A stretch of 64,000 nt of DNA from a phage. The notes beneath the pieces are model-generated. The model was not told the DNA's origin. It saw only the letters and a program-made list of their open reading frames with translations, and made no database searches. The stretch lies in sequence record PZ534534.1. One strand, 5' to 3'. Position numbers and translations under genes: made by a program. This document shows positions 8,732 through 30,549 of the stretch, piece after piece; the first letter of the stretch is position 1; every line of letters starts with the position of its first letter.

Positions 8732-9112
8732 TTATGACGCTTTGACGTAGCGCTCTGACAAAGCTGGGAAGCCAAAAGCAGTACCTATACTACCGTATGC
8801 TACCCACCATTGAAGTTCATCGTGACACCATTTTCCGATCAGGAAGGTGCTGGGGTAGCGGGTCAGTATTTTGGCATAAGCTTTAGGGTCTGCATCCTCT
8901 GGGATAATGATACTTGGAACATCTTTGTTATGACCACAGCAGCAGTTTAGAGTTTTCAATCCTGCCGCCCATAGACTCATGATAGGCTTAGCCATGCACT
9001 TATCAAGGCACACACGTTTTTTGCCGTCACGGAGCTTTTTAGGCACATCAACGATAACATTTTGATGCTTGGCACCTTTCACTTTCCAATTATAGGATTT
9101 ACACTTGCACAT
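8732..9112 (-). CDS. hypothetical Cys-rich protein (126 aa)
   Basis: ORF; N-terminal CKCKSYNWKVKG and CCCGHNKD cysteine cluster; function unknown. Confidence 0.45.
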   Translation of the reverse strand: MCKCKSYNWKVKGAKHQNVIVDVPKKLRDGKKRVCLDKCMAKPIMSLWAAGLKTLNCCCGHNKDVPSIIIPEDADPKAYAKILTRYPSTFLIGKWCHDELQWWVAYGSIGTAFGFPALSERYVKAS

Positions 9113-9139
9113 TTAATCAGTCTCCATCTAGAAAGCAAT

Positions 9140-9313
9140 ACTTTACTTAAAATCTTTGTCACCTATTACGATTGCACGAATCCACTCATTGTGATGTTCA
9201 ATGGCGGTAAGGTGTAACATAATGCAGTGATTGTCATTACCAAACACGGTGCGGTAAGCTTTAGCAGCACCATGATATAACTTCCACATCAGGTAATGAT
9301 ATCTTCGCCTCAT
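9140..9313 (-). CDS. small hypothetical protein (57 aa), absent from ORF track
   Basis: ATG overlaps stop of upstream gene in ATGA arrangement (translational coupling); translated MRRRYHYLMWKLYHG... by hand. Confidence 0.3.
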
Positions 9314-9789
9314 GGCTCTTTCTCCGGTTCAGGATCTGGGTAATCTTCAATAATAAAGGGCCATCCGTTCCGCTTAGCCTCAGACTTGTACTCAATCTCC
9401 TTCATTGCAAACTCTAACTGATTCTTAGCCGGAATACATGCCGGAGAATCATCAATCCAGATATCTGGGTAGATATCAAACTGCGCCAAGTAGGCTGCCT
9501 TCTGCACACCGCCTGTGTAGAACACACCAACATCGAGCTCCTTGCGCCAATACTCAATGTCTACATTGTCTTGAGTAATGAATCGGAAAGTCACAAGGTA
9601 GACTGTCCACCCCTCCTTCTTCAGATCCCTGATCAGGCGGGAGAAGATGAAAGGGCTCGCATTAAACGTTCCATCAAAGTCGATGGCAATGATGTGTGTG
9701 CCGTGGCGAGTCTCGTATGGATTGCTTGTGGTAAGATTACTGTAGTTAAAAGGAACTTCTTCCCCGCAGTAGCTGTAGTCCATATTCAC
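9310..9789 (-). CDS. HAD-superfamily phosphatase (possible nucleotidase)
   Basis: HAD motif I IAIDFDGT (DxDxT), motif II VYLVTFR, motif III Lys (GGVQKAAY), motif IV DIWIDDS read in translation. Substrate is inference. Confidence 0.6.
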   Translation of the reverse strand: MNMDYSYCGEEVPFNYSNLTTSNPYETRHGTHIIAIDFDGTFNASPFIFSRLIRDLKKEGWTVYLVTFRFITQDNVDIEYWRKELDVGVFYTGGVQKAAYLAQFDIYPDIWIDDSPACIPAKNQLEFAMKEIEYKSEAKRNGWPFIIEDYPDPEPEKEP

Positions 9790-10061
9790 ACCTTCTCGTT
9801 GATAAATTTACGGGCGGTTTGGTGGGTTGTTTCTGCTGTCTTCAGAATGATATTAATTTTATTGTCAAGATCATTCATCTCTGCAGTTAGTTCAGGAATC
9901 TCTCCGGCATGCATAGTGAAATCATACATAGACATGCCCAGAATCTCATTGATGCGACGGTTGCATTCTGCAGCACGCTGGTTCATTTTCCAAGCTAACA
10001 CCAAAGCCTCCTGCGTAGCCTCTAGTGCAAAATCTAATACGTCGGCCTCTTCTTTCGTCAT
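9786..10061 (-). CDS. hypothetical protein (91 aa)
   Basis: ORF with 4-nt overlap to downstream gene; no motif recognised. Confidence 0.5.
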   Translation of the reverse strand: MTKEEADVLDFALEATQEALVLAWKMNQRAAECNRRINEILGMSMYDFTMHAGEIPELTAEMNDLDNKINIILKTAETTHQTARKFINEKV

Positions 10062-21359: not shown

Positions 21360-22565
21360 ATGATTTTCATCTACGAACATTTCAAAACCCGTAAAGAAGC
21401 ACGAGACCGCCGTGCAGAACTTGAGAAGAAGGGTTTCACATGTGCCATTGAGAAAGGCGACACAACCTGGACACTGGCAGTTGGTGCCCCAGAGTTGTTC
21501 GATCCTGACCGTGACAGCGTCTGCTACACCCGTGAGGATTTTGAAACCCGCGAAGAGGCCCGTTTATTTCGATACGGTCTGGAAGATAACGGTAAGTACG
21601 CCATGATCTTAGATTTAGGCGAAGGGTCCGTTAAACGTTGGGGCGTGGTATACCCACTGTGTGTTGTTCATGGTGTGGGGTTCACTGGGGTAGCAATCAA
21701 GTCAGAAGAACCTTTAGTAGAAGTCAAAGATCCGGTGCTGGAGGTGGTGAGCAGCGTATCTCAGCAACAGACTCGAAGTATTGAGCCTTTGGTAGTTATT
21801 TGTGGGGAACTCCTCCAGATCACCTGCAACGAAGGCATTTTTGAAATTCGCCGCAGCGAAAGTGAGGAAGTTTACCAGAAAGTCTTCGACCATATCTCTG
21901 TTCAGGAATATGATGAGGCAATTGGTGAAATCCTTGTCTGGCTGGAACGCAAGAATGAGTTCACCACACTTGCAGACAACCTGGTCATGAAAGATGGTAA
22001 GCTCTACTACTACGGTGTAGAGATGCGATCCACCATTGCAAAGAAAATTGAGAAAGATTATGCAGACGGAACACTGGATGACCGCTATGTGAAATTCCTC
22101 GTTCGCCTGCTGCGCAATCCTTCTGCAAAATCTGTAAACATGCTCTACGATTTTATGCAGGCCAACGATATCCAGATTGCAGAAGATGGTCGAATCATTT
22201 GCTACAAAGGGGTTCAGTTTAACGGCAGCAAGTGGGTGGATTGGCACAGTGGTAAAGTTCCACAATACCAGGGGGCTTTTGTATCCATGCCTCGTAACTT
22301 TGTAGAGGATGATCCGGAAGCTGCGTGCTCTTATGGCTTACACTGCGCCAGCAAAGAGTATGCAAAGAGCTACGGCACTGTAATGACTGTTATGGTTGAC
22401 CCTGCAGATGTGGTTAGTGTGCCATACCAACACAATAGCGCTAAGTGCCGTGCATGCCGCTATGAGATTGTGGTAGCTCCGGAAGCACGCAAAGATGGAG
22501 ACCCTATTGAATATGTAGTTGATCGTGACGGTAACACTATCGACATTCTTTACGAGGAGGCGTAA
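21360..22565 (+). CDS. hypothetical protein (401 aa), possibly rIIB-like by position
   Basis: Large ORF directly downstream of rIIA-like gene; no diagnostic motif recognised. Confidence 0.5.
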   Translation: MIFIYEHFKTRKEARDRRAELEKKGFTCAIEKGDTTWTLAVGAPELFDPDRDSVCYTREDFETREEARLFRYGLEDNGKYAMILDLGEGSVKRWGVVYPLCVVHGVGFTGVAIKSEEPLVEVKDPVLEVVSSVSQQQTRSIEPLVVICGELLQITCNEGIFEIRRSESEEVYQKVFDHISVQEYDEAIGEILVWLERKNEFTTLADNLVMKDGKLYYYGVEMRSTIAKKIEKDYADGTLDDRYVKFLVRLLRNPSAKSVNMLYDFMQANDIQIAEDGRIICYKGVQFNGSKWVDWHSGKVPQYQGAFVSMPRNFVEDDPEAACSYGLHCASKEYAKSYGTVMTVMVDPADVVSVPYQHNSAKCRACRYEIVVAPEARKDGDPIEYVVDRDGNTIDILYEEA

Positions 22566-23935
22566 TGGAAAAAGGGCAGTATGATGTAGGCACAGATGCT
22601 GCCCTCGTTGCAATCATGAGTGGTGAGAATGTCTTCGTTTCAGGACCTGCAGGTTGTGGGAAGACGTATCTCATCAACATGATCCAGTCAATGTATGGAG
22701 ACTCTTGCATAACGGTTGCCCCGACAGGGGTAGCCGCTTTAAACGTTAATGGAGCAACAGCACACCGAACCTTCGATCTTGCAGCAGGTGTGAGCATGGA
22801 GTCAGACTGGACCGCAATAAGGGCAAAAACAGCAAAGCCTTTGAAAAGCAAGGCATTTACCATCCTGATTATCGATGAAATCTCTATGATCCGTGCTGAT
22901 AAGTTTATAGAGATGGATAGGAAACTCCGCTTCCTTCGAAAAAATGACAAACCTTTCGGAGGCATACAGGTCATATTGTTTGGCGATTTTTACCAGGCAC
23001 CTCCTGTTGTCTCTTCTATGGAGAAGGAAGCCTACTTCAACTTCTACCATACGGACCTGTGTTGCTATACCGAATCTTGGAAAGAGCTTGACCTCCACAA
23101 CATAGCCTTAGTAGATCAGTTCCGACAGGAGTCTATTCGATTTGCCACAATGCTCAACTGTGTTCGTGAGGGTCGTCGCATAAAAGAGGTTGTAGCAGAA
23201 CTTAATGCTCGCTGTTACAAAGGCGGTGTACCAACAGACGCTCTCACAATTTGCGCCACCAACAAACAAGCAGAGGAAGTGAACAGAAGGTTCTATGATG
23301 CCATCAACGCCCCAGAGAAGGTATACACTGGTGAAATGAAGGGTAAGTTTCCCTCCACCCTGCCAGTTGAGCAGGAGATGAAGTTGAAAATTGGCATGAA
23401 AGTTATGATAACCGCCAACGATGTTGACCCGACGCACAAGGTACCTTATTATGTTAACGGAACACGTGCCACAATTGTTAAATTTAAGAACAAGGCGGTG
23501 GTGGTAGAGCTTGAAGATGGAACACAGGTTGACATAGAGCAGAGGTTGTGGGAGAATAACGAGTATAAGCCCTCTCAGAGATACAACATTGCAGAAAGGA
23601 AGATGGAGAAGTTTATAGAGAGGGTAGTGATTGGGTCATACAAGCAACTTCCTCTGAAATCTGGGTACGCCGTAACATCTCATAAAAGTCAAGGACTTAC
23701 GCTAGATTGTTACAACCTGGACCTTGGAAAGAACGGAGCTTTCTCTCCTGGGATGACGTATGTTGCTTTGAGTCGGGTTAAGACAATACAAGGAATAAAC
23801 TTGTTGCGTCCACTAAGAGAAGTTGACATTATTGTTGACCCGCGAGTCGTAGAGTTTTACAATACAACATTCCCTGACTTAGACAAAATTGTCAGGAAAG
23901 ATTTTGAAACCAGAGCAGAAGAGGGGGACGTATGA
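22565..23935 (+). CDS. dda: Dda/RecD/PIF1-like SF1B DNA helicase
   Basis: Walker A VSGPAGCGKTYL, motif II ILIIDEISMI, and C-terminal VTSHKSQGLTLD...YVALSRV motifs characteristic of RecD/Dda family. Confidence 0.7.
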   Translation: MEKGQYDVGTDAALVAIMSGENVFVSGPAGCGKTYLINMIQSMYGDSCITVAPTGVAALNVNGATAHRTFDLAAGVSMESDWTAIRAKTAKPLKSKAFTILIIDEISMIRADKFIEMDRKLRFLRKNDKPFGGIQVILFGDFYQAPPVVSSMEKEAYFNFYHTDLCCYTESWKELDLHNIALVDQFRQESIRFATMLNCVREGRRIKEVVAELNARCYKGGVPTDALTICATNKQAEEVNRRFYDAINAPEKVYTGEMKGKFPSTLPVEQEMKLKIGMKVMITANDVDPTHKVPYYVNGTRATIVKFKNKAVVVELEDGTQVDIEQRLWENNEYKPSQRYNIAERKMEKFIERVVIGSYKQLPLKSGYAVTSHKSQGLTLDCYNLDLGKNGAFSPGMTYVALSRVKTIQGINLLRPLREVDIIVDPRVVEFYNTTFPDLDKIVRKDFETRAEEGDV

Positions 23936-24273
23936 GTTTGTGGAGAAATATCGTTAACTACGTGTGTGGCAATCCGACTCCTGAAGAGAAGAATGTTGTG
24001 ATTCACGATTTTACTAAAAGATCTCGTGAAAAAGATCTACTGCTAACAAAGGTGACTGATAAAGATCCTGCAGTAGGAGACTGGGCAGGTTTTGCGTTTA
24101 CATCGGACAAATACACCTTTAACAAAGGTGACTACCTTGTTGTAGATTTTAACGAAGACATTGAGGGTGCTGGACCTTACTATCAAACCCTTATTGTTGC
24201 AGGGTGTGTTAATCTCTCTGCAGGCATGCACAGTTTGATTCTTTTTGAGCTTGACTCTGAAGACCTTGAGTAG
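23932..24273 (+). CDS. hypothetical protein (113 aa)
   Basis: ORF overlapping upstream stop. Confidence 0.5.
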   Translation: MSLWRNIVNYVCGNPTPEEKNVVIHDFTKRSREKDLLLTKVTDKDPAVGDWAGFAFTSDKYTFNKGDYLVVDFNEDIEGAGPYYQTLIVAGCVNLSAGMHSLILFELDSEDLE

Positions 24274-24334
24274 TAAGGTGTGAGTATAAAGGGGAGGCAC
24301 TCCTCCCCACAAAAACTAAGGAGAGCACCAAACG

Positions 24335-25660
24335 ATGAGTAAAACCAAATTAGAACTTACCTGGATAGGTAAAAACGAGCGCAAAAAGTTAGAGCCGCAC
24401 ATTTTGTTAGAAGATTCTAGCAAATCTTACCACAGCCAGAAGGTGACCGAAAACGATATTTTTGATAATAAACTGATTTTTGGAGATAACTTATTAGCAT
24501 TGAAGGCGCTAGAGCAAGAGTATGCATGCAAAGTGAAGTGTGTTTACATAGACCCACCATTCAATACCGGGAGGGCTTTTGAGCACTACGATGATAGCCT
24601 GGAGCATTCCATTTGGCTGGGCTTAATGAGGGATAGGTTAGAAATAATTCGTAATCTTCTGAGTGATGATGGGGTAATATTCGTTCACTTAGATGGTTGC
24701 GAAATGGCGTATTTAAAAGTTTTGATGGACGAGATTTTTGGTCGTGCAAATCAGTTAAATACCATCTCGATGACCACAAATTCCCCTTCAGGATTTAAGG
24801 CAACAGGAGCCACAGTTTTCTCCACAGCAAACTTTTTGCTTGTATATGCAAAAGATCGCAACCAGAAACCGCTTAACAAAATCTATATACCTAAAGGGTA
24901 TGATACAGGATATAACAAATACCTATTAAACCCGGATGACCATTATAAAAATTGGACGTGGTGTGGTATTGCCGATGCGTTTGCAAAGGCCAATGGCTAT
25001 AAAGATGCAAAAGAAGCCAAGAAAAAACTGCCTGACACATTCGATGATGAATTAGCACAATTCGCAATTGATAATGCAGAACGTGTATTTCAATCTGTTG
25101 CAATTGGTGGTGGTGCTAAAATAAAGAGAAAAGAAACTATCGAGAAGTCAAAGAAAGACAGGGATAAGGTTTATGTACATCCAAATGAGGATGTTGAAGG
25201 ATTTTATATCGCAAATGGTAGGCAAATGGTCTTTTACTCCAACAGGCTTTTGGAAATTGACGGTGAGATGCAGCCTGCGGAACTAATAACTGATGTTTGG
25301 ACAGATATTAGTTGGAATGGAATAGCAAATGAAGGTGGCGTTAGTTTCAAAAATGGTAAAAAACCAGAAGCGCTTTTGAAGCGGATTTTCGAGATGTGTA
25401 CGCGAGAAGGCGATTTGGTATTGGATTCATTCGGTGGTTCGGGAACTACTGCTGCTGTAGCTCACAAAATGAAAAGACGTTGGATCTTGATCGAACTGGG
25501 TGATCATTGTCATACCCATATTATTCCGCGCTTGGAAAAAGTGATCGATGGCGAAGATCAAGGTGGTATTTCTAAGTCTGTAAACTGGCAAGGTGGTGGT
25601 GGCTTCCGTTATTACAAACTTACCCCGGCCTTAATTGCGAAAGATATGTCTGATCAATAA
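24335..25660 (+). CDS. DNA methyltransferase, N6-adenine/N4-cytosine class (beta-type motif order)
   Basis: Catalytic motif IV VYIDPPFNTG precedes AdoMet motif I VLDSFGGSGTT (beta-class order). Target base and site unknown. Confidence 0.7.
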   Translation: MSKTKLELTWIGKNERKKLEPHILLEDSSKSYHSQKVTENDIFDNKLIFGDNLLALKALEQEYACKVKCVYIDPPFNTGRAFEHYDDSLEHSIWLGLMRDRLEIIRNLLSDDGVIFVHLDGCEMAYLKVLMDEIFGRANQLNTISMTTNSPSGFKATGATVFSTANFLLVYAKDRNQKPLNKIYIPKGYDTGYNKYLLNPDDHYKNWTWCGIADAFAKANGYKDAKEAKKKLPDTFDDELAQFAIDNAERVFQSVAIGGGAKIKRKETIEKSKKDRDKVYVHPNEDVEGFYIANGRQMVFYSNRLLEIDGEMQPAELITDVWTDISWNGIANEGGVSFKNGKKPEALLKRIFEMCTREGDLVLDSFGGSGTTAAVAHKMKRRWILIELGDHCHTHIIPRLEKVIDGEDQGGISKSVNWQGGGGFRYYKLTPALIAKDMSDQ

Positions 25661-25673
25661 AGAGTACAATCAA

Positions 25674-25979
25674 ATGATGAAACGTTATAAACCATACACT
25701 TTTGAAATCGATTTCGAACTTGACGATATGTTTACTGTAGAAGCTCAGGCAGTTGTCCAGTTGCCAGACCCGGAGTGCCGTGATTCTGATGTTGACTATT
25801 ACGGATTTAGACAAATTACCGATGTGCATGTTTACCACAACGGTGAAGAGGTGGACTTCCACCAACTGCCAAACGATTTGCGACACTCAATTTACAAACG
25901 TGCAGCCCGTGAACTAGAGTCCTATCTGGATGCAGCGACGACAGCAGCTGCATTTGCTGAAGAAGTGGGAGGTTTCTGA
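25674..25979 (+). CDS. hypothetical protein (101 aa)
   Basis: ATG chosen downstream of MTase stop; track start 25635 is TTG in same frame. Confidence 0.45.
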   Translation: MMKRYKPYTFEIDFELDDMFTVEAQAVVQLPDPECRDSDVDYYGFRQITDVHVYHNGEEVDFHQLPNDLRHSIYKRAARELESYLDAATTAAAFAEEVGGF

Positions 25980-26377
25980 TGATTACAGGTGTGAAGATTA
26001 TCCAATACCACTTAACTAAATTGGAAGATGCTGAAAAAGAGCTTGCAGAAGTTCTGAATAGTGGATATACTTTGCTATCATGCGCCTGCTCAGATACCTA
26101 CGCTGTGTGGACACTTATCCGGAAGGAAGAGCCTGCGGGGATCTTGGTGCCAAACCCTAAGATCATTAGTGAGGTGGATGACTATGCTCAGGACGGCCTG
26201 CCAGAAGGCTGGGAAGTATGGGAAGGTGGTGAAAACCCTGCACCAGGTAAGTGGGTAAAATACAAACTACGTAGCGGTGCACAGTACGCTGACTACTCTG
26301 ATGACCTGGATTGGAGTCATTCTTCACCAGGATCATCTGCAAGTTCATATGATATCATAGCTTTTCAGGAAGAATAA
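25979..26377 (+). CDS. hypothetical protein (132 aa)
   Basis: ORF in array. Confidence 0.5.
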   Translation: MITGVKIIQYHLTKLEDAEKELAEVLNSGYTLLSCACSDTYAVWTLIRKEEPAGILVPNPKIISEVDDYAQDGLPEGWEVWEGGENPAPGKWVKYKLRSGAQYADYSDDLDWSHSSPGSSASSYDIIAFQEE

Positions 26378-26389
26378 GGAGATAGTGTT

Positions 26390-26872
26390 ATGTCAGATTT
26401 TATGTGGAAAGTAGGTTACGCAGCTCCTGAAATGTGTGAGGCTTGCTTTGTGAAAATAGGCCGCGAGGATATCGACAAAGTGATCCTTAAGTTTCGTGAT
26501 GTGGCTGTGATCGGCAACCGAGTGCTTAAGCACTTAAAGAATCTGAAGCTCACTAAAAAGAAGTTCTTCGGACTTTTCGAAGAGAAAGTTGATGCTTGGA
26601 CCCATTGCATCCAGGAAGCTAAATCTCACTACAGTGCTATCGTTACTCCAGAACGGGTAGCCAAGATGGAAGGATTCATCAACAGCACAGAATTTGAGTG
26701 TCTGAAAGCTGCACTCGATAGTTATCCGAAATGCCTCAAGCACTTGGACAAGTATGTAGAAAAGGATGGGGAAATGTATCTCACCCTGGACGCATACTAT
26801 GAGATGCAAGAAATTTTAAATTTAGATTTGACATTGGTATCCACCGAGTATACAATAGGTATCCGGGTTTAA
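26390..26872 (+). CDS. hypothetical protein (160 aa)
   Basis: ORF with GGAG RBS. Confidence 0.55.
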   Translation: MSDFMWKVGYAAPEMCEACFVKIGREDIDKVILKFRDVAVIGNRVLKHLKNLKLTKKKFFGLFEEKVDAWTHCIQEAKSHYSAIVTPERVAKMEGFINSTEFECLKAALDSYPKCLKHLDKYVEKDGEMYLTLDAYYEMQEILNLDLTLVSTEYTIGIRV

Positions 26873-26877
26873 CACTA

Positions 26878-26906
26878 GGCCCTGCCCGAAAGGGTGGGGC
26901 TTTTTG
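26878..26906 (+). terminator. rho-independent terminator (GNRA loop)
   Basis: GCCCTGCCC-GAAA-GGGTGGGGC hairpin followed by TTTTTG; near-identical copy at 39174. Confidence 0.6.
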
Positions 26907-26923
26907 CATTAGGAGACAGCAAA

Positions 26924-27688
26924 TTGAAATTCATCTACAAAGAACACTACCACAAAGGTGTTGTGTGGAGTCTATTTGACGGGTCTGGTGGTGCAGTTAT
27001 TGACTGGGCAAAAGCTGGGTACCTGTGCCTGTGCTTTAATGCAGAAGGTGCTGACCACGGCAGTTATGCAGAGGTGATAACCGATCATCCTAACATTCAC
27101 TATGTGGATTATTGGATTGACCCATGGTTCCCTCAAGAAACTTTTTGCATGTATCCAGCTCCAGACTTTATTCTTGCATTTCCTCCGTGCACGCATTTAG
27201 CGGTATCAGGAGCTGCACACTTTAAGAAAAAGCTGGCTAAGGACCCACTGATCCAAATTAATGCTGTAAAGGATGCTCGGGTTGCGGAAGAGTTGGGAGA
27301 GATTTACGATTGCCCGTGGCATGTAGAGAATCCTGTAGGTGTTATGTCCACACTGTGGCGCAAACCTGATTACCGTTTTCACCCTTCGGATTATGGCGGG
27401 TATTTACCGGAAGATGATGTAAATCCATGGTTTCCTGAATTTATAGCTCCACGTGATGCCTATCCAAAAATAACTTGCGGCTGGATAGGTAATGGATTTA
27501 TAATCCCAGCCACAAAACCTGTCCCGCAAATAGTTGACGTGGTTAGCGGGTATTCCATGCAACACGCCAAGCTGGGTGGAAAGAGTGCAAGAACGAAGAT
27601 GATTCGAAGCCTCACACCACGTGGCTGGGCAAAAGCCGTATTCTTAGCAAACGAGCCTGTAGTAAGGAGCAGAATTAATGGGAAGTAA
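26924..27688 (+). CDS. DNA cytosine-5 methyltransferase
   Basis: Motif I SLFDGSGG (FxGxGG), motif IV FPPCTHLAVSG (PC dipeptide), motif VI HVENPVG (ENV) read in order. Start set to TTG 26924 after AGGAGA RBS because track start 26894 (GTG) lies in terminator hairpin. Confidence 0.6.
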   Translation: MKFIYKEHYHKGVVWSLFDGSGGAVIDWAKAGYLCLCFNAEGADHGSYAEVITDHPNIHYVDYWIDPWFPQETFCMYPAPDFILAFPPCTHLAVSGAAHFKKKLAKDPLIQINAVKDARVAEELGEIYDCPWHVENPVGVMSTLWRKPDYRFHPSDYGGYLPEDDVNPWFPEFIAPRDAYPKITCGWIGNGFIIPATKPVPQIVDVVSGYSMQHAKLGGKSARTKMIRSLTPRGWAKAVFLANEPVVRSRINGK

Positions 27689-29756
27689 ATTTATGGCATC
27701 TGCATACAACCGTTTCGGTGAGCCAAACCCGGTTGCAACAAGATACAAAAGTGGGGGTAGTATGAAACGAGACTATCGTGATGAAAAAGAGGTTGAAACT
27801 GTAGAGACTGTTTTAGAAAATACTAAAATTGTCCCTGTCCCACAACAAAATATCGGTCTGATGGCTGCACAATATTTTGGTGTGCGATCAGCATTGTCCC
27901 AAGAAGATGGTGTGACAGTCACTGCAACATATTTCCCATATTACGACCGCTACGGAAATCTGTCCGGTTTCAAAAAGCGTGACTGGACTAAGCCGAAAGA
28001 GCAGAAAGGGCACTGGTCTGTAGTAGGCATAGTGAAGGCTAACTCCCAGATGTTTGGTCAAAAGCTGTGTGCATCTTCCAACAACCGTAAGCAGATTAAC
28101 GTTTGTGAGGGAGAAGGTGATGTTATTGCAGCATGGCAGGCTGCATATCAGATACAAGTAAAAGGGATTCTCACCAACGCTAAAGCCCCGGCAAAAGTGA
28201 AGCAGTGGGCTAAAGAGGTCCAGGACGGGATCGACGCAGTTATCAACGGTGGTGATCTGGCAGGAAAACCCTGCCTACCTTTTGTTGGAATTAACTGTGG
28301 ATGTGCAAACGCAGTAGATACTTTTGCAAACAATGAGAAATTTATCCGTAGCTACGGAACAGTGGTCCTTGCAATGGACAACGATGCAGCTAACGAGATA
28401 GAGAAGCAAAAACACGTTATCAAAGGTGTTGAAGCCACACATAATATCGCAGCATTTTTGATGGCTGATAACGTTTACCACGTGGAATATCCTGGCGAGG
28501 TAAACGACCCTGATGGTGTAAAAGATATCCGTGACATGCTGAAGGCTAAAAAGCTGGAAGATATTGTAAACATGTTCCGGCATCCTGTTAAGTATGTGCC
28601 GGATGCTGTGTCGGATTTAGAAGACTTCTCTATCGAATCTTTGCGGAAAAAGACTTCCAACGGGGTAGATATCAGCGCAGAGTTCCCAAAACTGCAAAAA
28701 ATGCTGAAAGGCTTGCACAAAGGGACACTTGTAATGCTTACAGGTCCATCAGGAGGCGGTAAAACAACTGTAGCTAAAAAACTGGAACACTGTATTGCAA
28801 GATACCTAATGGACCCGACATGTCCAAAGGCTGATGATTACGAAGAGGATGATCGTCTATGCATGATTCATCTTGAGGAGGACCCAGAGGAAGCAATTAA
28901 CTCCTTGTATGCAAACCAGTTAGGGTTTGATGTTAAAGAGTTTGTTGAAGATCCTAGCCAGTTTTTAACTGATCAAGAACACGCAGAGATTCACCAATCA
29001 TGGGCAAAAGCTGGAAAAATCAAAGTGTTCAAACATTTCGGATCTATTCCGGTGGACGAGTTGATTACCAAGCTTAAGCAAATGGTTTGCCTGTACCATT
29101 GCCGTTATATTGTGCTGGATCACCTGTCCATGGTAATTTCAGGGCTTAATGTTAAGGATGAGCGAAAAGAGCTGGACATGGCTATGACCCAACTGGCTGC
29201 GTTTTGTAAGCAGTTTAACGTGTTTATCCTAGTGATCGCTCACCTCAAACGTACAGAGATTGTGCCTCCTAAGGACAAGGATGGTAACCCGTTACCTTTC
29301 TGGTATCCTGTGCGAAAAGAGAATTTGCGAGGATCGGCTGGGCTTGAACAGTTGAGTTGGGTAGTCATAGGTGTTGAGGCTGAAGAAATGGTAGATCGTT
29401 CTCGTGGTCGTGTCCGTTTAGTAGGTCTTAAAAACCGTCCAGCAAAAACATTGGGTATTGCGGATACTTTGGTTATGGACCCACATACAGGTAAGTTCCA
29501 TGATGCCAGTAATTGGTACTGGGACAAAGAAATGCAGATGTTTACAGACGGAGAAGGTGGGGAGGTTGTTTGGAGACCTCAGGCCATGTTTGAGGACCAA
29601 GAGCATGCAGTTGTAGAAACACCTATGGGCAAGGTTGTAGCTGATAAGGTTGTAACTCCTACTATTAAGCCTGTTGACACGCAGGAAGACCTCCAGTACG
29701 ATGATCCATCTTCTGATCCGGTCCCCGGTTTTGAAGATGATGAAACACCTTTTTAA
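27678..29756 (+). CDS. primase-helicase (TOPRIM primase plus DnaB-like helicase, T7 gp4-like)
   Basis: TOPRIM motifs NVCEGEGDVIAAW and VVLAMDNDAANE in middle; helicase Walker A MLTGPSGGGKTT and Walker B YIVLDHLSM in C-terminal half. No N-terminal zinc ribbon seen. Confidence 0.65.
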   Translation: MGSKFMASAYNRFGEPNPVATRYKSGGSMKRDYRDEKEVETVETVLENTKIVPVPQQNIGLMAAQYFGVRSALSQEDGVTVTATYFPYYDRYGNLSGFKKRDWTKPKEQKGHWSVVGIVKANSQMFGQKLCASSNNRKQINVCEGEGDVIAAWQAAYQIQVKGILTNAKAPAKVKQWAKEVQDGIDAVINGGDLAGKPCLPFVGINCGCANAVDTFANNEKFIRSYGTVVLAMDNDAANEIEKQKHVIKGVEATHNIAAFLMADNVYHVEYPGEVNDPDGVKDIRDMLKAKKLEDIVNMFRHPVKYVPDAVSDLEDFSIESLRKKTSNGVDISAEFPKLQKMLKGLHKGTLVMLTGPSGGGKTTVAKKLEHCIARYLMDPTCPKADDYEEDDRLCMIHLEEDPEEAINSLYANQLGFDVKEFVEDPSQFLTDQEHAEIHQSWAKAGKIKVFKHFGSIPVDELITKLKQMVCLYHCRYIVLDHLSMVISGLNVKDERKELDMAMTQLAAFCKQFNVFILVIAHLKRTEIVPPKDKDGNPLPFWYPVRKENLRGSAGLEQLSWVVIGVEAEEMVDRSRGRVRLVGLKNRPAKTLGIADTLVMDPHTGKFHDASNWYWDKEMQMFTDGEGGEVVWRPQAMFEDQEHAVVETPMGKVVADKVVTPTIKPVDTQEDLQYDDPSSDPVPGFEDDETPF

Positions 29757-29814
29757 TGTTTAACAAAGAGTGGGAGGGGTAGTACAACCGCCTCCCCTTT
29801 AAGGAGAACACTTT

Positions 29815-30549
29815 ATGAACGAGTTCAGAGACCACTGTGTAGCCAACCACCTGTGGTCAGAGATACTGGAGTATGACGGTCAAAATCTTTTTTGGAAGAT
29901 AGACATTCTGGCAGGTAGCGGTGTAGGATATGTTAAAACTTCAGCAGGCTCCAGAGCTGACAAGGGGCAAGATGCTGATGGCAGGCCTGTAGTTAGTCTA
30001 GGAAAGCATTGCACTAAAGGTGCCCACGTCATAATCTGGGAAATGTTTAACGGCCCTGTACCGGAAGGGTATGAGGTTGACCACATCAAGGAGATAAGGG
30101 AAACAGGTGGTGTGGCTGATAACAGTATTCAAAATTTGCAACTACTCGAGCCCACAGATAACAAAAAGAAAAGTTGCAAGATACCTCGTAGCAACAACAA
30201 ATCTGGCAGGGTCGGGGTGCACTATTCTGAAGAAAGAGATGCATGGATAGCTCAAGGCACAGACTCTGTAGGGGAAAGGGTCTGGCTAGGCCAGTACAGA
30301 ACTTTTGAAGAGGCAGAGTGGGCAAGAAAGTTCTTCGAAGATAATGGTTTTTCGCACAAGAGTGGAAGAGCCGTGCAGTATAATAATACCAGCGGTTGCT
30401 CAGGGGTGAATTGGGATAAAACCCATGAAAGATGGGTAGCCAGAATTTATGTAGATGGTAAAAGGAAATGCCTTGGGTATTTCAAGAATAGGGACGATGC
30501 AATAGCTGCAAGAAAGAATGCTGAGAAGAAACAGGAGGGGACAGTATGA
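29815..30549 (+). CDS. HNH homing endonuclease with AP2 DNA-binding domains
   Basis: HNH core GYEVDHIKEIRETGGVADNSIQNLQLL; two AP2-like segments (GVHYSEERDAWIAQ..., GVNWDKTHERWVARIYVDGKRKCLGYFKNRDDAIAARKNAE). Free-standing between primase-helicase and DNA polymerase. Confidence 0.65.
   Translation: MNEFRDHCVANHLWSEILEYDGQNLFWKIDILAGSGVGYVKTSAGSRADKGQDADGRPVVSLGKHCTKGAHVIIWEMFNGPVPEGYEVDHIKEIRETGGVADNSIQNLQLLEPTDNKKKSCKIPRSNNKSGRVGVHYSEERDAWIAQGTDSVGERVWLGQYRTFEEAEWARKFFEDNGFSHKSGRAVQYNNTSGCSGVNWDKTHERWVARIYVDGKRKCLGYFKNRDDAIAARKNAEKKQEGTV

Follow-up and report, generated by a model that had tools for sequence, protein, structure and literature searches.

Why does a lytic phage carry two DNA methyltransferases of different chemistry within 3.4 kb, and what would they do there with no cognate restriction enzyme beside them? 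The question is raised by a 64,000-nucleotide stretch of phage sequence record PZ534534.1 (the window, throughout), the plus strand of which encodes MT1, a 441-amino-acid (aa) beta-class amino-methyltransferase (24335..25660), and MT2, which starts at TTG and is a compact Dcm-like C5-cytosine methyltransferase of 254 aa (26924..27688). Both open reading frames (ORFs) and their contrasting chemistries had been picked out in an earlier, sequence-only reading. The ORF boundaries are those annotated as coding sequences in the near-identical phages isim and WalterGehring, and the assignment of one enzyme to the beta-class amino-methyltransferases and of the other to the C5-cytosine family and fold holds. 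The window belongs to Vequintavirus, the rV5-like E. coli myophages: 118 phage records match positions 24000..28000 at 97-99% identity, and essentially all belong to that genus, among them rV5, FFH2, Murica and isolates from BASEL and from Danish wastewater. Drawing on homology, on the domains and origin of the genes, and on their selection and distribution, we arrive, with moderate confidence, at narrow, site-specific self-methylation, in which MT1 would act against the type III restriction-modification (R-M) system it came from, as a Mod unable to dock Res, and MT2 would be a replication-coupled 5-methylcytosine (5mC) enzyme.

MT1 matches the Pfam family N6_N4_Mtase (E 8e-42, profile positions 1-216 of 221), with a large insertion splitting the two halves of the match. 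It carries motif IV, DPPF (aa 73-76, 24551..24562, +), followed by motif I, FGGSGTT (aa 366-372, 25430..25450, +), just as the sequence-only reading had reported in placing it in the beta class. This order, with motif IV before the recognition domain and motif I after it, fits a type III Mod and is the order found in the Mods of EcoP15I (4zcf), H. pylori (6k0w) and Mbo45V (7dsu). The closest solved structures are likewise type III Mods, PDB 6k0w (2.3e-28) and 4zcf (7.3e-24). The PADLOC model MTase_III (PDLC03636) is matched with an E-value of 1.9e-202, over profile positions 2-443 of 575 only. Chance would not come near to matches of this strength. Family membership, taken by itself, would make the chemistry N6-adenine rather than N4-cytosine.

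The missing part of the profile is accounted for by comparison with E. coli. MT1 is 95% identical (418/438) to residues 1-438 of a 567-aa E. coli Mod (P0273), the rest of which is missing from the phage protein. At the nucleotide level, 24322..25669 (+) is 93.3% identical to the chromosomal E. coli mod gene over 1363 aligned positions (blastn); near 25650 the deletion of 11 nt puts the reading frame into a TAA at 25658..25660, and homology to E. coli mod stops at 25669. By homology, then, MT1 is a 3'-shortened type III mod gene, of which the 5' three-quarters were captured.

What was lost can be read against EcoP15I, in which Mod consists of an N-terminal domain (NTD, 14-60), a methyltransferase (MTase) core (62-262 and 390-516), a domain for target recognition (TRD, 263-384) and a C-terminal domain (CTD, 539-644). 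In EcoP15I, two Mod subunits pair through NTD and MTase domain, and the resulting Mod2 methylates alone; the CTD of ModA contacts Res extensively, and Res also touches the MTase domain (PMC4490356). The alignment of MT1 with EcoP15I is offset by about +75, so that MT1 ends at approximately EcoP15I residue 515, the boundary between MTase core and CTD. Relative to EcoP15I-type Mods and P0273, MT1 therefore keeps the N-terminal region, catalytic core and recognition domain, but relative to the EcoP15I Mod it lacks the C-terminal ~125 aa that contact Res in that enzyme, and it has no res neighbour. The PADLOC profile, the P0273 alignment and the unrelated ORF downstream all show MT1 to be without a Res-contacting CTD. 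That downstream ORF, of 100 aa, was considered as a split-off Mod C-terminus and rejected, as only a 7-aa junction remnant resembles P0273.

The absence of a cognate restriction enzyme, claimed from the sequence alone, proved true within the phage but not beyond it. Restriction-enzyme models from Pfam and PADLOC, REase_III included, match none of the neighbouring ORFs from 22565 to 30549, where the sole endonuclease-type match is an HNH/AP2 homing endonuclease. A res gene does, however, adjoin the full-length gene in both E. coli and Acinetobacter; directly 3' of full-length E. coli mod lies the gene for a 910-aa protein that matches PADLOC REase_III at E 8.8e-191. The presence of this cognate nuclease in potential hosts argues that MT1 would be anti-restriction in a specific rather than a general sense. 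The full-length E. coli gene is chromosomal; of 5426 complete E. coli genomes, 24-29 have it (~0.5%; for example strain SMN152SH1, WP_024226319.1, and strain 2014C-3011). Homologues of MT1 with 58-75% identity and ~540-640 aa are found across many bacterial taxa, and the spread of these forms shows that the gene passed from host to phage. G+C content is 39.8% for MT1, 41.1% for E. coli mod and 43.7% for the window.

In E. coli the island around mod reads helix-turn-helix (HTH) gene, DrmD-like SNF2 helicase, AbiD/AbiU-type genes, Mod and Res, and in Acinetobacter the same SNF2-to-Mod-Res frame encloses other cargo. The DrmD-like SNF2 helicase (PADLOC DrmD, E 9.4e-209) precedes Mod-Res in the E. 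coli locus L008 (4106..14464) and in L012 (3366..12571) and L014 (4129..13478). An HTH gene, named mads1 by PGAP, stands ahead of Mod-Res in the E. coli loci only, and the cargo between SNF2 and mod comprises AbiD and AbiU-like genes in E. coli and an AAA_21 ATPase with DUF4276 in Acinetobacter. From its gene content the SNF2-Mod-Res locus looks like a type III-like operon hosting variable defence genes. The name mads1 had prompted a test for MADS, which we rejected: MADS works with a specificity subunit on a bipartite site (TCAGNNNNTCC) and needs MAD6-8, but this locus has Mod and Res. The DrmD-like helicase had prompted a test for ARMADA II or DISARM, which were also rejected as there is no YprA/DUF1998 helicase.

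How the fragment entered the phage is visible from relatives that lack it. In contrast to chromosomal Mods, MT1 is carried by a lytic phage on a 1.33-kb insert; comparison with the empty site in EduardKellenberger (MZ501061) defines a 1,333-bp accessory insert at 24339..25671 (+). Of 117 Vequintavirus genomes, about 30, BASEL EduardKellenberger (Bas59) and navn among them, lack exactly these 1,333 bp, and about three-quarters have them. The insert ends can be placed only to within an imperfect direct repeat of 9 bp, AAACGATGA at 24330..24338 and AAATGATGA at 25672..25680, and the 5' end of E. coli mod reads GAAATGATGAGC; together, the two flanks and the mod 5' end point to microhomology-mediated insertion. 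At the empty site, the ribosome-binding site (RBS) of MT1 (AGGAG, 24320..24324, +, read from the sequence) and its ATG serve the 100-aa ORF directly. Among 50,697 phage records MT1 occurs in Vequintavirus only, where 87 records have it at 90-99% identity; beyond these, the best match stays below 41%.

MT2 belongs to a large phage family. It matches phrog_757 at E 6.9e-87, and its homologues form more than 3,500 clusters at 90% identity; against representatives of 50%-identity clusters there are 1009 matches at E <= 0.001, the best 150 of which are mostly ~170-260 aa. The family is present in 1477 phage records, including T1-like phages (the 'dcm' of TLS) and BASEL Drexlerviridae, where it is annotated as 'Dcm-like C5 cytosine methyltransferase'. 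MT2 is 54% identical (E 3e-86) to bas06_0055 of KarlJaspers, a 711-bp gene. The 711-bp dcm of phage K42 (a 95% identical genome), whose product is nearly identical to the KarlJaspers protein, places 5mC on the multicopy single-stranded DNA of retron Ec86, as measured by liquid chromatography-mass spectrometry, and its activity needs C82, E128, K175 and K176, which were mutated only together (10.1101/2023.08.16.553469). According to the same preprint the gene is the trigger of retron Ec86, a CCWGG site is implicated, and escape mutants delete or disrupt the gene, which is therefore dispensable (10.1101/2023.08.16.553469).

The motifs of MT2 can be set against the K42/KarlJaspers Dcm (236 aa), with which it shares a compact length class and a DNMT3-like predicted fold. 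Motif I is FDGSGG (aa 18-23, 26975..26992, +). Motif IV is PPC (27182..27190, +), with a predicted catalytic Cys89 that is invariant in the alignment and corresponds to C82 of K42 Dcm; motif VI is ENP (27326..27334, +), with Glu135 corresponding to E128. Thus the FxGxGG and PC motifs of the sequence-only reading were found, but its ENV is in fact ENP. Within YPKIT (27461..27475, +) the invariant Lys182 corresponds to K175, and the second lysine, K176, is replaced by Ile183; Cys89, Glu135 and Lys182 have the spacing seen in K42 Dcm. A putative motif IX-like block, assigned by inspection, reads RSLTPRGWAKAVF (27605..27643, +), and the protein ends 14 residues after it. Among 28 relatives PPC and ENP are invariant, the G-S of motif I nearly so, and GGKSxRTKxIRSLTPRG near-invariant. 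The variable segment before GGKS is of a 'GYSxQH' type (GYSMQH) in MT2 and 'NPGW' in K42, so that the target of MT2 may differ. The settings also differ, MT2 lying in the replication operon of a 137-kb myovirus and the K42/KarlJaspers gene in a T1-like siphovirus.

Because MT2 matches nothing in Pfam (PF00145 was tried at E <= 0.01 and E <= 1) or NCBIfam, the earlier motif-based call needed independent support. Searches of PDB sequences with phmmer and profiles gave only sub-threshold matches, over motifs I-IV, and hhalign against E. coli Dcm aligned motif IV alone. Of 28 relatives, 19 match PF00145 at E <= 1 (best E 1.3e-06). Support comes from the predicted structure, which has the C5-methyltransferase catalytic fold and is DNMT3-like. 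Compared with PF00145 enzymes (M.HhaI, M.HaeIII, E. coli Dcm and the DNMT3 catalytic domain), MT2 shares the Rossmann-type fold and has FxGxG, PC and EN(V/P) in canonical order, but it is ~70-220 residues shorter and lacks the PF00145 match. QxRxR (motif VIII) and GN(A/S)V (motif X) are absent from both its sequence and the family consensus, and its TRD is not sizeable, with ~40 residues from the last core strand to the RSLTPRG block. The cytosine-5 assignment is thus upheld by motifs, fold and membership of a Dcm-like family, but not in the sense of a canonical PF00145 enzyme. The closest non-identical relatives (P0002 and P0003, 80-81% identity, on phage contigs of up to ~12 kb) read FDGSE or FNGSD in place of FDGSG; this clade has lost the last glycine of the S-adenosylmethionine-binding motif I, which may mean that activity was lost or changed.

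The RBS of MT2, AGGAG (26911..26915, +), lies nine bases before the TTG, and an earlier in-frame GTG falls within a terminator-like G+C-rich hairpin with a T run (26877..26902, +) between a 160-aa ORF and MT2. Upstream is a sigma-70-like promoter match, TTGACA-17-TACAAT (11/12; 26828..26856, +), which is a consensus match only; such matches are not in excess across the region as a whole. The promoter-like site sits in the 3' end of the 160-aa ORF with the hairpin within ~20 nt and the MT2 RBS immediately next. A transcript from it must cross the hairpin, which may therefore act in attenuation or may simply be a terminator for upstream transcripts.

An alternative view of MT2 is that it serves mainly the phage's DNA metabolism, marking replicated DNA, timing transcription or packaging, or evading a non-R-M system, with anti-restriction secondary. 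The gene is core to the genus, being present in 116-117 of 117 Vequintavirus records, MT1-less ones included; it heads the primase/helicase-polymerase operon, its stop overlapping the primase/helicase start (27678) by 11 nt; and in T1-like and lambdoid phages, too, family members occupy replication or nin-type regions, in the lambdoid type adjoining NinG/RusA/Q, two genes downstream of a PF05869 Dam. In BASEL Drexlerviridae, moreover, methyltransferase genes are not linked to restriction resistance (PMC8594841). CCWGG is not avoided in the window either (133 observed, against 82 expected from base composition and 109 from a first-order Markov model), although as a hint to the MT2 target this is uninformative. 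However, a regulatory role has been demonstrated in no family member, the K42 gene can be dispensed with, and co-expression with replication is equally expected of a protective enzyme acting on nascent DNA. We consider a mainly metabolic role unlikely.

The sequence-only reading had instead proposed that both orphans shield the genome against host restriction in general. Both enzymes are indeed orphans in the phage, and phage orphan methyltransferases are commonly so interpreted (PMC12707154; PMC12210895), those of mobile elements serving as anti-restriction devices (PMC12707154). As a broad claim, however, this conflicts with the phenotype of the BASEL Vequintavirinae, which are 'exceptionally susceptible' to six R-M systems, two each of type I, type II and type III (EcoKI, EcoCFT_I, EcoRI, EcoRV, EcoP1_I and EcoCFT_II; PMC8594841). 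Several of these phages carry both MT1 and MT2. Since they are sensitive to all six systems, any protection must be narrow, and the recognition domain of MT1 is that of a single type III system. General shielding is accordingly improbable.

Under narrow, site-specific self-methylation, both genes would encode active methyltransferases acting on the phage's own replicating DNA, with different histories and scopes. Illegitimate recombination would have placed 1.33 kb of an enterobacterial host's type III mod gene behind an RBS that the phage already had; in EcoP15I terms, this copy retains the dimerisation region, catalytic core and TRD and is without the Res-docking domain. Made early in infection, MT1 would form a stand-alone Mod dimer and place N6-methyladenine on one strand of the source system's asymmetric site. 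Progeny DNA, and possibly replicating DNA, would thereby become immune to the source type III system, and no restriction complexes would form with host Res. MT2, translationally coupled to primase/helicase at the head of the replication operon, would place 5mC on new phage DNA at a short site, possibly CCWGG-like, which may differ from that of K42 Dcm; its protection would be site-specific, not general. An incidental consequence could be that retron Ec86-type systems sense MT2.

Several results weigh against this reading. The six restriction systems all act on phages that carry the pair; a quarter of the genus does without MT1; and the source type III system is so rare in E. coli that the selective benefit is not obvious. 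For MT2, the biochemical evidence comes from a 54%-identical protein with another variable segment, Ile stands in place of the K176 of K42 Dcm, motif X and a recognisable QxRxR are missing and the TRD is not sizeable. Finally, the literature searched contains no methylation data or methylome study for Vequintavirus or rV5, and neither methylation nor restriction comes up in the rV5 genome paper.

The history of selection on MT1 bears on whether it functions at all. It could be a hitch-hiking host fragment, a non-functional pseudogene in decay: the frameshift shortens it relative to its source, the insert is missing from part of the genus, and still shorter homologues of 342-389 aa exist in the databases. 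Between the phage and E. coli copies, however, the ratio of nonsynonymous to synonymous substitution (dN/dS) is 0.088 over 437 codons (dS 0.22), and most of the 87 phage records preserve the 441-aa ORF intact. MT1 breaks off between two domains, leaving the Pfam catalytic domain complete, and the same boundary recurs with different tails: other ~440-aa Mod forms, with at least five unrelated C-terminal tails, stop where MT1 does. The codon comparison thus indicates that MT1 is under purifying selection and not decaying, and we regard a pseudogene as very improbable. Only 2 of the 19 amino acid replacements between phage and E. coli Mod lie within residues 180-335, and together with the low dN/dS this leads us to expect the same target site as that of the source system.

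More speculatively, losing the Res-docking CTD may itself be adaptive: phages would repeatedly have captured type III mod genes and kept the N-terminal, catalytic and recognition parts alone, giving a 'Res-blind' Mod that methylates the source site, cannot arm host Res and may poison host Mod2Res by forming heterodimers with the 95%-identical host Mod. We put this forward as a doubtful extension; if it were true, the presence or absence of MT1 would track exposure to hosts with the rare type III locus. That MT1 is chiefly a decoy, pairing with host Mod, to which its NTD and core are 95% identical, in heterodimers unable to hold Res and thereby poisoning the host type III enzyme, with methylation secondary, has in its favour that EcoP15I dimerises by NTD and MTase domains and binds Res by the ModA CTD, of which MT1 has the first and not the second, but the idea is purely inferential, the catalytic motifs and recognition domain that a pure decoy would not need are under purifying selection, and in EcoP15I Res contacts the MTase domain too, so we rate it lowest of all.

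A further Mod of this kind is found outside the genus. In a different phage type (L020, 6001..7335) there is a 444-aa Mod, 84% identical to MT1, that ends at the MT1 boundary; a second phage lineage, too, has a Mod lacking the C-terminal domain. The L020 phage type carries NrdD/NrdG, PhoH and ClpP, and a D12-class Dam gene lies close by at 8999..9886.

Orphan phage methyltransferases are textbook material, and the pair described here is not new, being annotated in dozens of published Vequintavirus genomes; in Bas51 (WalterGehring) the two genes appear as 'putative N6 adenine methyltransferase' and 'Dcm-like C5 cytosine methyltransferase'. Certrevirus CB7, also of the Vequintavirinae, likewise has an adenine methylase and an HHpred-detected C5 methylase with no restriction gene (PMC7344957); its adenine enzyme is described as Dam-type, whereas MT1 is a shortened type III Mod. 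No description of the host origin of MT1, its CTD loss or its insertion polymorphism was found in the literature searched, and these points add incrementally to a kind already known: the finding, though real, is an ordinary one. Its value is that close relatives with and without MT1 exist in a public collection and that the exact source type III locus is identified, which amounts to a clean natural experiment and allows direct tests both of the specific arms-race prediction and of what the Mod C-terminal domain does. MT2 in turn links Vequintavirus to the Dcm-like family that triggers retron Ec86, from which we predict that Vequintavirus phages, widely used as therapeutic candidates, may be sensed by this retron.

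The genes around the pair run rIIA, rIIB, PIF1-type helicase (PIF1/SF1 by Pfam), a 113-aa ORF, MT1, three small ORFs, MT2, primase/helicase, HNH-AP2 homing endonuclease and DNA polymerase. The three small ORFs, all on the plus strand, are hypothetical: the 100-aa ORF after MT1 (25677..25979) matches phrog_4240 only, with no PADLOC match, and the 132-aa (25979..26377) and 160-aa (26390..26872) ORFs match phrog_11995 and phrog_12900, both of unknown function, with no Pfam or PADLOC match. The HNH_3 and AP2 homing-endonuclease gene (29815..30549), between primase/helicase and DNA polymerase, shares 4 nt with the start of the polymerase gene. In phage isim this place holds no gene and the HNH gene follows the polymerase, a mobile-endonuclease polymorphism. 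Lastly, 16 to 26 records of the series MG0656xx (for example MG065661, MG065682 and MG065658) are labelled 'Campylobacter phage' with host C. jejuni; they are unannotated, are ~97% identical to E. coli Vequintavirus across the region, and are probably mislabelled or contaminant assemblies.

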